A stretch of DNA of 64,000 bases from Ramlibacter sp. 2FC (GCA_943372515.1 CALRYY010000012.1:1074-65073); one strand, 5' to 3'; counted from the first letter of the stretch, positions 51,587-57,063 are shown. Program-made: numbers and translations. Notes: generated by a model from the sequence alone, not told the origin.

Positions 51587-51977
51587 GGGTGGGGATGATA
51601 ACCCTCCGGGTTGGGCGACATGCCGCAATCACAGGTTCTTCTTGGAATTAGTACAAAAAGTAACATTTCAGAGAGCCAAATCAAGCGACTTTTACCGGCT
51701 CCTGCCATCGCCTGCAGAGGGGGCGATCAGGCCACGTTGCGGCAAAACAGCACCAATATTAATATTAATTAATTAATAAATGGTGTTTGGCAATTCATAA
51801 ACGCTGGTTATTCGCGCGGTAAACGGCAATAAAACGCTTGCAGCCTTCAATGCGTTCATGGCCCTGGCGCAAGTCTCATCACCTCAAGACCTGCCAGGTA
51901 CTGGAACCCTTTGGAAGGTCTTGTGCATGTTTCTGATTTGTTACATTTTCCCGTGCCCTGCACGTCGGGCCTGAGCC
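51587..51977. promoter_or_regulatory. AT-rich divergent leader between the SIS gene and the three-gene cassette
   Basis: It contains AATATTAATATTAATTAATTAATAAA (51755..51780). It also has the direct repeat GGCAAT(TC)ATAAACGCT / GGCAATAAAACGCT (51789..51805 and 51825..51838) and an inverted repeat CAAGACCT-N23-AGGTCTTG (51885..51923). Confidence 0.5.
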
Positions 51978-52922
51978 ATGGACAAGCTTTTCCTTGGCGT
52001 CAGTTTTCTGGGTTTCGCACCCAAAGTCTGTGACCAGTTTGCCACCTGGATGGGTGCCTTCGGACGCGACGATTGCGGCTGGCAGGTGGTTGCGCCGCAA
52101 CGCGCTGATGCGTGGTGCGTCAATGCCGATGCCATTGAAGACCGTGGCGCTTCAGGCCTGAACATCCGGCACCGCCACCCAGACGGCACTTTGGAGGGGT
52201 TTGACCTGCGGCGCGCTCCTGGACTGCTTGCGGTTTCTTCGGAGCAGTTTCATGCAGTATCAGGTGCGGTGCTCTTTGAGGCGCAGCGCCAAGCCAGCGT
52301 GATTGCAGCATTTCGCACACTGGAGTCGCGGCTTGGCATGCTGCGCTGCGACTACGCGCTGGGCTGCTCGCTGGCATGGCACCAGGAAGAAGTAGCCACC
52401 AACGGGGTGTACCAGCTCCTGTACCACAGCCGCCTCATGGCCGTGGTTGATCTAAGGCGGCGCATGGCCGGCTTTCCTCTTACGGCCACGCCTGCAGATC
52501 TGCTGCGTTCCGAGTGGACCCGCCGTCCCCTGGGCGCGGGCGTAGTCCCCGATTCCTTTGTCCGCCGCTCGACCACAGATCTGATCTGGACTTACGCAGT
52601 ACGCACGACGCTGGACATCCTTCCTGCACGCTACCGCCGCCGGCCCATTTACTTCTGCCAGATGCCGCGCATGGCCATTGAGCAGCTGGAACCCGCCCAC
52701 ATCCGCCTCATGGCCGCATTGCGCTCAGGACCCATGTTGCTGGAGGACCTGGCAAAGCGCCTGGCGGCACCTGAACAACAGGTTTGCAGGTGGCTGGCCG
52801 CCCTGCATACCGCCGGCGCCATCAGTGTGACGCCACCTGAGGCAGCGCCGCAGGCCGGCGCCACCCCCGTGATGTTGCTGCGCTCCACCGGCCATAGCCC
52901 TGCCGCCCAGCTGATGGCGTAA
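51978..52922 (+). CDS. hypothetical protein, no recognisable family (possible C-terminal winged helix)
   Basis: Intact 314-aa ORF with GC3-rich codons like its neighbours. No signal peptide or TM segment. The C-terminal IRLMAALRSGPMLLEDLAKRLAAPEQQVCRWLAALHTAGAISV reads like a wHTH. Confidence 0.55.
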   Translation: MDKLFLGVSFLGFAPKVCDQFATWMGAFGRDDCGWQVVAPQRADAWCVNADAIEDRGASGLNIRHRHPDGTLEGFDLRRAPGLLAVSSEQFHAVSGAVLFEAQRQASVIAAFRTLESRLGMLRCDYALGCSLAWHQEEVATNGVYQLLYHSRLMAVVDLRRRMAGFPLTATPADLLRSEWTRRPLGAGVVPDSFVRRSTTDLIWTYAVRTTLDILPARYRRRPIYFCQMPRMAIEQLEPAHIRLMAALRSGPMLLEDLAKRLAAPEQQVCRWLAALHTAGAISVTPPEAAPQAGATPVMLLRSTGHSPAAQLMA

Positions 52923-52971
52923 CGGCGCACCAGAGAAATCGACCGAATACCCCGAAACACCGAAAGCTCAC

Positions 52972-56600: not shown

Positions 56601-57062
56601 CAGGTGCTGCTGCTTTCGCAGGAAGTCCTGGACCTGGCCCACTACGTCACCGCAGGGCGGTTCTACACGCTGCTGGCGTTTGCACTGGTGGTGGACGTTC
56701 TGCTGTACGTCGCAGGCCACGCCGACGCCGCGGGCCGCCAGGCACGGGGCCTGGCGCTGCAGGCCGTGCACAAGTACCTGAACTTGTCCGCGCACCTGCC
56801 GCTGCTGGCACCGCGACGCATGTTGTACCGGGGCTGGGCCGACTTGCTGCAGGGCCGGACCACGCTGGCCCTGCGTGCCTGGCAGCGCGGGCTGGATGCG
56901 TGCACCCGGTTTCCCTCGCCGTACGACGCAGCCCGGCTGCATCTGCTGGCGTCGCAGCACTGCACGGGCGAGCAGGCGGCGGTACATGCCCGCGAAGCCG
57001 CGCGCCTGTTCCTGGCTTGCGGTATGGCGGGGCCGTCGTACCCGATGATGCCTGGCGGCTGA
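53676..57062 (+). CDS. SARP/BTAD winged-helix - P-loop STAND NTPase - helical-repeat (TPR-like) protein
   Basis: aa 1-245 are OmpR-type wHTH plus BTAD (LHVLGRVRL..., LRLALSKLRQRL, EPWNEEPHMSLLRLLARVGSTAAALDRYESCRLALAEHLG). Walker A GPAGVGKS is at 54549..54572 and Walker B ALVLDGFE at 54783..54806. About 700 aa of Leu/Ala-rich helical repeats follow. Start trimmed to MKHTVTL (ATG 53676). Confidence 0.8.
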   Translation: MKHTVTLHVLGRVRLHAGPQGADSVALPAKSLAMVLYIAMERKHIRREVLADMFWGDTGDDGARANLRLALSKLRQRLPGVIHADAETVGLDPQAVVEVDALSLLRAAETAAQQSASVLGSAIGRYCGPFLRDFQLRDCAAFDDWAGLQRQRIDRSAVVILRELVRLEQQARHLHNELQYLELWAQIEPWNEEPHMSLLRLLARVGSTAAALDRYESCRLALAEHLGSKPSAALVALADDIRRGNVSPVVSPPALRSRVSTAELLPLLGRAGDMRRIRQHLDRGERLVTLLGPAGVGKSRLARALMDDIAVGYPDGCVICSFDFIGREAGAESVRDHVVAALGSALGLDFSQTVQPMAMLRKFLGTRRVALVLDGFETCIPAAPVVADILQAAPNCVVIVTSRVRLGIAYEWLYELRGLAAGDSSADPGAALALLRACARRVGVAIDEVHEYEALKRLVHLLDGSPLAIQFAAQSLRTLTASQLVQRLEQGTWLDSSLHVPEYRHRTMQDVMDDMWEQLDPSGQEAWARCALFRGTFPREWVPDCAGVSDDSLSVLVERSVVAREAFGRCRMHELTRQYGLAMLDELPQAQAHRRQFAQGVLARLLVLAPRLVREEAALLDEVKADISTLAAAFELALQWADADQVDAPLDALCSIYHRLGWHFAAARLLEAALERYPHAPVAYRIAWHCRAGAVTHNQYGYLHDNAHFRAAVALAGVVLPRAGALAWVLALGHALRSIFSRPAASLGERNAQRMLAHAITRLLMGRFMDGASASELWGGLALAWGAARHSAAPDARLAVMLKALAFLSTTRQGFVARRLVRHVRLRLRDVQPVEEAFALQQLGNSMIVRGRWEVAEAYLQRAAAALASLGYGYDSLECRAQLNAVHLHQGDFTRLLEEVRITEVEARTLEQPAILRWSLMFKVQALLRSGLGSVGMAQSCLHDIHGIAVRRTMLEDIRTRGLEALVACARGDLSQVLLLSQEVLDLAHYVTAGRFYTLLAFALVVDVLLYVAGHADAAGRQARGLALQAVHKYLNLSAHLPLLAPRRMLYRGWADLLQGRTTLALRAWQRGLDACTRFPSPYDAARLHLLASQHCTGEQAAVHAREAARLFLACGMAGPSYPMMPGG

Positions 57063-57063
57063 G

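Follow-up and report, generated by a model that had tools for sequence, protein, structure and literature searches.

What kind of system is encoded by three genes that split the housekeeping yraN-SIS-BON genes, and how did they come to lie there? The question is raised by a 64,000-nucleotide (nt) stretch of Ramlibacter sp. 2FC (GCA_943372515.1 CALRYY010000012.1:1074-65073; hereafter the window), in which yraN and a SIS gene are separated by three co-oriented open reading frames (ORF1, ORF2 and ORF3; together, the trio or cassette) preceded by an AT-rich leader. The answer given by the analysis described below is that the trio represents a variation on an established regulator type, the large SARP, and not a new kind of system. 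ORFs were called from a six-frame ORF list and domains were assigned with Pfam and NCBIfam. The list reproduced the layout proposed in a first-pass annotation made from the DNA alone, namely three plus-strand genes with intergenic gaps of 49 nt (ORF1-ORF2) and 65 nt (ORF2-ORF3):

51978-52922, plus strand: ORF1, 314 aa
52972-53610, plus strand: ORF2, 212 aa
53676-57062, plus strand: ORF3, 1128 aa

Beyond that description, the analysis revealed a conserved, putative SARP-box-like promoter, a short upstream open reading frame (uORF) and variable cargo at the yraN-SIS junction.

The large regulator ORF3 and the promoter-like leader

The Pfam scan of ORF3 identified a BTAD domain (PF03704) at residues 101-242, with an E value of 1.9e-16 and 61 bits against a cutoff of 22.1, followed at residues 267-478 by an NTPase matched by NB-ARC (27.8 bits, cutoff 23.5), AAA_22 (30.5 bits) and NACHT. 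When the C-terminal 520 aa were scanned alone, TPR_2 (28.4 bits, cutoff 27) and TPR_14 were detected. The SARP/BTAD output and the P-loop NTPase named in the first-pass annotation were both recovered, but not the roughly 700 aa of helical repeats, as about 530 aa follow the NOD, with few TPR units seen by Pfam and most of the region matching no repeat model. In an alignment of nine orthologues, 64-85% identical, the motifs GPAGVGKSRLA (Walker A), LDGFE (Walker B), VTSRVRL, GSPLAIQ (GLPL-like) and MHELTRQ (MHD-like) are invariant, and so is ARANLRLALSKLRQ, the putative N-terminal recognition helix. A His-Asp switch was recently shown to gate AfsR (bioRxiv 10.64898/2026.09.02.748808), and the MHD-like motif of ORF3 reads His-Glu at the matching position, H573/E574.

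Ahead of the BTAD domain, residues 28-85 can be aligned with residues 15-68, the Trans_reg_C segment, of a large SARP from Streptomyces, a plasmid-borne protein with Trans_reg_C, BTAD, NB-ARC and TPR, and the alignment over the whole SARP domain reaches an E value of 5e-7. In addition, residues 10-657 are 29% identical over 650 aa (E 1e-44) to a BTAD-STAND-TPR protein of Allomeiothermus. An alternative start at 53475, which would give a longer in-frame ORF, was rejected, the N-termini of the orthologues converging on MKHTV at 53676.

SARPs are treated as essentially actinomycete regulators (PMC7040171), and a literature search for characterised proteobacterial SARPs returned nothing relevant. 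A tblastn search of plasmids with ORF3 retrieved 236 records at about 27-30% identity, with Streptomyces (61), Rhizobium (54), Rhodococcus (35) and Deinococcus (15) among them, as well as Burkholderia, Variovorax and Cupriavidus; the BTAD-NTPase architecture is therefore not rare outside actinomycetes in databases. Given the AfsR-type architecture and such BTAD-NTPases on Rhizobium, Burkholderia and Variovorax plasmids, the remark in the first-pass annotation that the cassette was not a system it could name proved too strong for ORF3. In conclusion, judged by its domains and motifs, ORF3 is an AfsR-type, STAND/NLR-like large SARP made of a probable OmpR-like winged helix and BTAD, an NB-ARC NTPase and TPR-like repeats, for which DNA binding and ATP-dependent activation are predicted by analogy.

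The leader, described beforehand as 391 nt long and AT-rich, was indeed found to have a guanine-plus-cytosine (GC) content of 0.45-0.49, lower than the roughly 0.62-0.71 of coding sequence in the flanks and the cassette and the roughly 0.65 of its surroundings as a whole. Its features are as follows:

51587-51977, no strand: AT-rich intergenic leader, 391 nt, between the divergent SIS-BON genes and the cassette
51777-51837, plus strand: phased direct repeats (T/A)AAACG(C/G), a candidate SARP box overlapping the -35 position
51777, 51798, 51820 and 51831, plus strand: the heptamers TAAATGG, TAAACGC, TAAACGG and AAAACGC, spaced by 21, 22 and 11 nt
51846-51851, plus strand: -10-like hexamer TTCAAT, exactly 8 nt after the last heptamer
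51927-51974, plus strand: uORF of 15 codons encoding MFLICYIFPCPARRA, with the ribosome-binding site GGAAGG at 51913-51918

We profiled the conservation of the leader over 10 distinct trio lineages. Against a column identity mostly around 0.4, conserved places emerged at the SIS start region, at 51648-51667, at the ORF1 ribosome-binding/uORF region and, above all, at 51798-51853, where a column identity of 0.77-0.97 marks the best-conserved intergenic stretch. None of the AAACG cores at 51799, 51821 and 51832 varies among these lineages, save for the first base of the 51799 core (TAACG in L002), and the furthest-upstream repeat, 21 nt upstream of the 51798 heptamer, reads TAAA(T/C)G(G/C) across them. 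Laid out in an 11-nt register, the block reads TAAACGCtggt / tattCGCgcgg / TAAACGGcaat / AAAACGCttgc / agcc / TTCAAT; this table is the informative view, an autocorrelation of the leader conservation having given no clean 11-nt peak. The region of the -10-like element, CCTTCAAT, is invariant in 10/10 lineages, and the CA at 51857-51858, 6-7 nt past the hexamer, is likewise unchanged in all of them, with transcription likely to start near 51858. The -35 position (ACGGCA) is a poor match to the consensus.

The 16-mer AAACGSCAATAAAACG occurs once in each of the 19/19 trio loci with a captured leader and in 0/85 other loci. The extended box pattern is unique in the window, where 0 occurrences are expected by chance, and a search of the 64 kb for a second copy, which could mark a regulon member, with a looser two-repeat pattern returned only chance-level matches with one mismatch. 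According to the published rule for SARP promoters, successive direct repeats are spaced by 11 or 22 bp and the 3' one lies 8 bp from the -10 element (PMC10936776), and the leader box agrees with it in sequence geometry. ORF3 is the only cassette protein with a predicted OmpR-type DNA-binding domain and the cassette promoter appears to carry the matching operator class, which we regard as the main new mechanistic evidence. Three other assignments were considered by eye and discarded: a sigma-54 promoter (GG/GC spacing wrong and not conserved), an RpoE-type promoter (AAC-to-TCAAT distances that do not fit) and an IHF site (a region unlike the consensus). No Rfam family was matched in 51400-57300 at E up to 1.

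All 10 lineages have a uORF that opens with ATG and spans 15-23 codons, always with (G/A)(G/A)AAGG 7-9 nt upstream. Its TGA lies 3 nt ahead of the ORF1 ATG in the window and 1-3 nt before the ORF1 start in the other lineages, or overlaps it (TGATG in L002); the differences in length are all in frame, and the peptide is Cys-rich and weakly conserved. ORF1 lacks a good Shine-Dalgarno sequence of its own, and the uORF probably encodes a leader peptide translationally coupled to ORF1. A hairpin that would occlude the ribosome-binding site (51885-51896 / 51912-51923) was rejected, RNAalifold finding no conserved pairs over nine lineages.

The second conserved block, TTAGTACAAAAAGTAACATT at 51648-51667, lies 60-80 nt upstream of the SIS start with a column identity of 0.75-0.79, and is restricted to the shallower trio lineages, being absent from L006, L101 and L002. 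The block may serve as promoter of SIS-BON or as an operator bound by ORF1; within it, GTAACATTTC resembles GTTACATTTTC inside the uORF (51938-51950). A second AT-rich intergenic stretch of leader-like composition (GC 0.46-0.49) lies at 60350-60800, between priA and a hemE-like (URO-D) gene.

No terminator or promoter consensus was found on the plus strand between the cassette genes. The gaps of 49 and 65 nt in the window compare with 15-47 nt (ORF1-ORF2) and 61-156 nt (ORF2-ORF3) in the orthologous trios with complete gene calls. We infer co-transcription, so that trio and leader would form a self-contained regulatory operon comprising promoter, short leader ORF, ORF1, ORF2 and ORF3.

The companion proteins ORF2 and ORF1

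ORF2 is matched by HATPase_c with 29 bits, just over the 26.4-bit cutoff, and a profile of its orthologues finds, over residues ~95-209, the CA domain of the sensor kinase ZraS (9jfj) as best match (E 2e-12). In canonical histidine kinases the N box reads (V/L)LxNLxxNAxxA, the G1 box DxGxG and the G2 box GxGLG. The corresponding segments of ORF2 are:

N box: VLHLILDAAQA, the Mg-ATP Asn being replaced by Asp (D115, invariant in 15 orthologues)
G1 box: D(T/S)RA(S/C) in place of DxGxG, and DTRAS in the window
G2 box: C(T/S)SLG in place of GxGLG

No HisKA/DHp domain was matched in ORF2 at E up to 10 and no phospho-acceptor His is present, nor did Pfam match the HATPase_c_2 family of the SpoIIAB/RsbW type. 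The first ~60-95 residues, a moderately hydrophobic segment and a variable linker, are poorly conserved; the segment may be signal-like, membrane-associated or amphipathic. The description of ORF2 as an eroded kinase therefore stands, given the substitutions in all three boxes relative to ZraS and the missing DHp: on these motifs ORF2 is a histidine-kinase CA domain that has lost its N, G1 and G2 boxes, a pseudokinase. Because the boxes are degenerate and the DHp is absent, it would be expected neither to bind ATP nor to phosphorylate any substrate. The family is small, with 26 members among 5.8 billion clusters, and every member whose context was checked lies inside a trio. A homologue with 84% identity over 64% of the query (P0043, annotated with PF02107) was listed in the eukprot set of eukaryotic proteins, an entry best explained by contamination with bacterial sequence or by a chimeric gene model.

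The Pfam scan of ORF1 gave no family above threshold, and a word-indexed search retrieved only 21 close homologues. An exhaustive profile search, run at E up to 1e-3, extended this to 240 clusters; the majority of the matches listed are full-length proteins of about 310-380 aa. ORF1 is thus placed, on sequence similarity, as a diverged member of a Burkholderiales family without a Pfam model or a name.

An AlphaFold2 (AF2) model of ORF1 built from a 41-sequence alignment, with a predicted local distance difference test (pLDDT) score of 87 and a predicted template modelling (pTM) score of 0.82, replaced an earlier one from 15 close sequences (pLDDT 70, fold matches not significant). The model consists of an alpha/beta domain (1-100), two long helices (105-139), a beta-sheet domain (144-230) and a three-helix winged helix (239-285). 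In agreement with the latter, the C-terminus has sub-threshold matches to ArsR, MarR and DprA_WH, with weak ArsR/MarR similarity over residues 230-290. ORF1, in which the first-pass annotation could assign no motif, hence acquires a predicted C-terminal winged helix from both the profile matches and the model. One member of the family is labelled 'MarR family' by one source.

The top Foldseek match was 6oaq_B, a REC-GAF fragment of a dual-sensor kinase (E 7e-4), with a TM score of 0.22 that denotes poor superposition; the other receiver or pseudo-receiver matches were weak, the REC domain of ChxR reaching a TMt of 0.50. A receiver identity of the N-terminus was rejected, no conserved acidic residue being present after strand 1 (invariant G12, near-invariant F13) or strand 3, beyond which the secondary structure of the model is mostly beta. 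What is left is a faint receiver resemblance, and we leave the N-terminal fold without assignment.

Remote relatives of ORF1 (22-33% identity) with fetched context are stand-alone genes, none of them beside an ORF2-like or ORF3-like gene, and ORF1 had no match on plasmids. In the best-supported reading of the operon, ORF1 was recruited into it from the wider Burkholderiales family. Remote members are found at:

L093 8001-9050 (Caenimonas terrae)
L094 1327-2400
L053 809-1966
L095 1694-2677

In Caenimonas terrae and in another metagenome-assembled genome (MAG) the gene is flanked by genes for a DAHP synthase and an mpl-type Mur ligase, and it has other surroundings in Polaromonas (L053) and on a forest-soil contig.

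Origin, distribution and selection at the yraN-SIS junction

The genes around the cassette, assigned with Pfam and NCBIfam, are those described in the first-pass annotation:

50355-51038, minus strand: BON/DolP-like gene
50987-51586, minus strand: SIS gene (GmhA/DiaA-like; Pfam SIS_2, E 5e-33), left insertion boundary, divergent from the cassette
57064-57441, minus strand: yraN (UPF0102; Pfam UPF0102, E 2.9e-24; NCBIfam YraN), right insertion boundary, convergent with ORF3
Beyond yraN: rsmI (plus strand) and priA (minus strand)

In E. coli K-12 the order is rsmI <> lpoA-yraN-diaA-dolP, so that yraN, diaA and dolP are consecutive, as stated in the first-pass annotation. The best NCBIfam model for the SIS protein is 'phosphoheptose isomerase', with 338 bits against a cutoff of 276, and DiaA ranks second; the protein is 93-99% identical among trio loci. 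The cassette ends, as proposed, 1 nt from the convergent yraN, the ORF3 stop lying at 57060-57062 and the yraN stop at 57064-57066. No terminator-like structure was seen between the two stops, and antisense read-through transcription between cassette and yraN is possible. The shallower lineages likewise have the two stops 1 nt apart; in L006 and L002 they are separated by 32-66 nt.

To place the trio, we scanned for the SIS protein in one genome per species, which gave 80 Comamonadaceae loci, each with flanks of up to 10 kb, and searched these with tblastn; none of the 80 species representatives carried the trio. Where both genes are present, yraN lies 26-141 nt from SIS in most of the scanned loci, and this spacing holds for almost every locus from Polaromonas, Rhodoferax, Hylemonella, Limnohabitans and Curvibacter. 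The trio itself was found at the identical site (SIS / ORF1-ORF2-ORF3 / yraN) in at least 10 diverged lineages, with an ORF1 identity of 49-94%; its carriers are a small group of Ramlibacter-like bacteria from soil and water. With the remote ORF1 family set apart, every trio-type ORF1 and every ORF2 homologue with fetched context has this same arrangement. The trio loci also share a wider neighbourhood with putA, pilT/pilU, a 3-hydroxyisobutyrate-dehydrogenase-like gene, priA and hemE. A metagenome scan with the close ORF1 alignment added three loci only.

In a neighbour-joining tree of concatenated BON, SIS, YraN and RsmI, all trio loci form one clade whose inner order mirrors the divergence of the trio proteins. 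Its sister is L063, a Ramlibacter sp. 2FC MAG with an empty site and an intact yraN-SIS junction of 60 nt. Alignment of the empty and filled sites places about 5.47 kb of extra sequence from about 20 nt upstream of the SIS start to the yraN stop, with no target duplication. That an insertion had split yraN-SIS-BON, as surmised from the window, is thus supported by the short junction in most of the 80 loci and by the empty one in L063.

The coding GC of the cassette is host-like. No tRNA was found in 45000-62000, no direct or inverted repeat bounds the cassette and no integrase or transposase lies among its neighbouring genes, in line with what had been noticed at first. Together with the absence of a target duplication, these results leave the cassette without the marks of a classic genomic island or mobile element. 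Since the trio is monophyletic, its tree follows that of the flanks, the GC is host-like and marks of mobile elements are absent, the trio is to be regarded as an old embedded module and not a recent island, which upholds the earlier view of a lineage-specific module. The simplest reading of these data is one old insertion in the ancestor of a Ramlibacter-related clade, followed by vertical inheritance.

The reading frames of all three genes are intact in every full-length trio locus. We calculated pairwise ratios of non-synonymous to synonymous substitution rates (dN/dS), the ranges referring to the closer, less saturated pairs. They amount to 0.10-0.13 for ORF1, 0.12-0.24 for ORF2 and 0.14-0.20 for ORF3, compared with 0.01-0.05 for SIS and BON and 0.10-0.19 for YraN, and in the same comparisons dN is about 0.09-0.18 for the cassette versus 0.004-0.036 for the flanks. 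ORF2 is the fastest-evolving gene of the trio, with a dN/dS of up to 0.76 against L002. From these estimates, the trio genes are under purifying selection, but their proteins evolve much faster than those of the neighbouring genes.

The same junction holds other cargo in other genomes:

L014 (5002-10000) and L018 (5566-10000): ECF sigma factor, RskA-type anti-sigma and DUF4331/DUF4198 genes
L043 (304-10000): hybrid PAS histidine kinase and NMT1-type binding protein
L023 (1257-10000): Rieske oxygenase, TctC, ice-binding-like surface protein and OmpA-like protein
L030, L037, L071, L076, L068 and L020 (six species): about 690 bp with an ORF of 122-124 aa lacking an assigned family
L042: gap of 2.8 kb

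As unrelated cargo is present in neighbouring Ramlibacter-type clades, the trio is just one among several cargoes that have come to occupy this repeatedly used site.

Proposed mechanism, rival explanations and known systems

The mechanism proposed here starts from what was observed, namely the gene content, domain identities, motif states, conservation, single-origin distribution and promoter-like footprint. We read the trio as an ATP-dependent, autoregulated AfsR-like SARP switch operon, inserted once and inherited vertically, and give this reading, which draws on analogy, a little better than an even chance of being correct. Specifically, by analogy with AfsR, the TPR/NOD part would keep ORF3 off until a signal and ATP permit activation. 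The SARP domains would then bind the phased (T/A)AAACG(C/G) heptamers as side-by-side protomers, over the missing -35 element, and would bring RNA polymerase to the weak TTCAAT -10; transcription from about 51858 would result in positive autoregulation of the operon. ORF1 and ORF2 would be co-expressed accessory parts. ORF2 would most plausibly bind ORF3 or ORF1 without any catalysis, as a partner or an inhibitor, much as MalK, MalY and Aes restrain MalT, and ORF1 may be a second DNA-binding output or a feedback regulator.

Several points weigh against this switch operon. Pfam finds no Trans_reg_C match in ORF3 even at E up to 10, and PDB sequence searches with ORF3 alone and with its profile returned generic P-loop and plant NLR matches, without retrieving AfsR or EmbR. 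The promoter, start site and operon are predictions, and the roles given to ORF1 and ORF2 are drawn from analogy. A generic sigma-70 scan found no promoter at the leader and provides no positive evidence, a result which is nonetheless expected of an activator-dependent promoter. The choice of the heptamer frame leaves 1-2 nt of freedom in the 8-nt fit, and regulators of the OmpR/PhoB family also bind 7-nt direct repeats with 11-nt phasing. The dN/dS values are rough, because dS, at 0.7-1.2, is near saturation. Finally, the first-pass annotation had suggested asking whether the three genes co-occur in unrelated genomes: they are always together, but never outside one site and one clade, so that independent co-occurrence was not seen and linkage is inseparable from shared ancestry.

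It is conceivable, if unlikely, that the repeats are the operator of another protein, either the winged helix of ORF1 or an OmpR/PhoB-type regulator encoded elsewhere, and that ORF3 acts on distant targets only, as AfsR does on afsS. The repeat length and phasing shared with the OmpR/PhoB family are compatible with this, as is the winged helix in ORF1, and the best-known targets of AfsR exclude its own gene (PMC10936776; bioRxiv 10.64898/2026.09.02.748808). Nevertheless, the box is found only where the trio is found, ORF3 is the sole trio protein with a predicted OmpR-type DNA-binding domain, winged helices of the ArsR/MarR type usually bind palindromes as dimers and not tandem repeats, and the 8 nt to the -10 correspond to SARP class-II geometry. 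We consider distinctly unlikely a local role, in which ORF1 or ORF3 would mainly control the divergent SIS-BON promoter through the shared 391-nt region and tie envelope functions to the sensed signal. Genes yraN, SIS and BON lie only tens of nt apart in empty-site relatives and are probably co-transcribed there, the insertion implies that SIS-BON must be driven from within the leader, divergent regulator-target pairs are common, and a conserved block (51648-51667) does lie upstream of the SIS start. That block, however, is missing in the deeper lineages L006, L101 and L002, the invariant repeats and the -10 face ORF1 at about 210-270 nt from the SIS start, and SIS and BON, being housekeeping genes, do without a regulator of this kind in the other Comamonadaceae that were scanned. 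Control of SIS-BON would be possible alongside the autoregulated switch, with which it is compatible.

A rather improbable variant would make the trio a new kind of signalling module, with ORF3 as an NLR-like STAND activator controlled by the remnants of a two-component system, the dead CA domain of ORF2 and a non-phosphorylatable, receiver-like/winged-helix ORF1 serving as binding or ligand-presenting subunits and the Cys-rich leader peptide adding a further layer; if true, this would be the first defined Gram-negative AfsR-type switch with identifiable upstream partners. An antiviral system of the Avs/STAND type, at which the first-pass annotation had hinted, would have its TPR part sense a phage protein and its transcriptional or toxic output run through ORF1 and ORF2. 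A STAND core with a C-terminal repeat sensor is indeed common to Avs proteins, the cassette occupies a variable junction and it evolves faster than its flanks. This option is nevertheless very improbable: PADLOC gave only mad8 (E 0.0022) and TRIP13 (E 0.0074), both marginal and on the P-loop, the N-terminus of ORF3 is a SARP predicted to bind DNA and holds no effector of the nuclease, protease, TIR or a comparable kind, the cassette has been passed on strictly vertically at one site and shows no signs of mobility, ORF1 lacks plasmid matches, and the context is housekeeping with no defence genes nearby. Least credible of all is a decaying, functionless remnant, a degenerate two-component system beside a regulator. 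The loss of DHp and ATP-binding boxes in ORF2 and its rapid evolution (dN/dS to 0.76 versus L002) would fit decay, yet the frames are intact in all full-length loci, dN/dS is well below 1 in informative pairs, the degenerate motifs are themselves invariant (LILDAAQA, with D115 fixed), and the promoter block and uORF are conserved.

Read as an AfsR-like switch, the trio invites comparison with known systems. The Streptomyces coelicolor antibiotic master switch AfsR and the remaining large SARPs have in common with ORF3 the domain order (an OmpR-like winged helix, which is putative in ORF3, then BTAD, NB-ARC/STAND NTPase and TPR) and intact Walker A/B, GLPL-like and MHD-like motifs (MHE in ORF3), and their promoters share with the candidate promoter of the trio the 11/22-nt repeats, the 3' repeat 8 nt from a weak -10 and the lack of a -35 (PMC10936776). 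Unlike AfsR, ORF3 belongs to a betaproteobacterium (Comamonadaceae, Ramlibacter-like), is only about 27-30% identical to its actinobacterial and Deinococcota relatives, and has housekeeping neighbours; its vicinity is free of biosynthetic gene clusters, afsS-like genes and Hanks-type kinases (AfsK). An actinomycete host and the control of secondary-metabolite clusters, which ORF3 thus lacks, characterise the range in which the family is known and not how it works. The repeat motif AAACG also differs, the putative target of ORF3 is its own operon, and the companions of ORF3, a CA-only pseudokinase and a protein of the ORF1 family, have no counterpart in descriptions of AfsR.

MalT of E. coli is a STAND activator restrained by MalK, MalY and Aes. 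Like ORF3, it joins a STAND NTPase to a C-terminal helical-repeat sensor that controls a DNA-binding output; its DNA-binding domain, however, is a C-terminal LuxR-type helix-turn-helix, whereas that predicted for ORF3 is an N-terminal SARP. MalK, MalY and Aes have no homology to ORF1 or ORF2, whose partner role we infer from MalT. Sensor histidine kinases such as ZraS resemble ORF2 in the CA domain and differ from it in possessing a DHp with phospho-His and non-degenerate boxes. The Avs STANDs have in common with ORF3 the STAND core and the C-terminal repeat sensor; ORF3 differs in lacking an effector domain, a PADLOC family match and a defence-island context, and in being vertically inherited in the chromosomal core.

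The signals that activate AfsR-type proteins are still unknown (bioRxiv 10.64898/2026.09.02.748808). NLR-like factors of this type have been studied almost only in actinomycetes, and the trio is compact, apparently autoregulated and Gram-negative; with a sharp candidate operator and two dedicated partners, it could serve as a model of how such switches are held off and released. As a clade-restricted regulator, it overturns nothing by itself. In evolutionary terms, it exemplifies a housekeeping operon, yraN-SIS-BON, split by regulatory cargo at a recurrently variable junction.

A SARP-like gene was also noticed on the opposite side of the yraN-SIS locus in a Burkholderiaceae MAG (L044). It encodes a different BTAD + AAA_16 protein of 1262 aa (4607-8395, plus strand), 31% identical to ORF3 over 229 aa, is convergent with rsmI, and is preceded by an ORF of 255 aa without assignment. 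Hidden Markov model searches of all fetched loci detected no relative of ORF1 or ORF2 beside this or other SARP-like genes. The arrangement in L044 may be a coincidence or a further use of this neighbourhood by SARP-like regulators.

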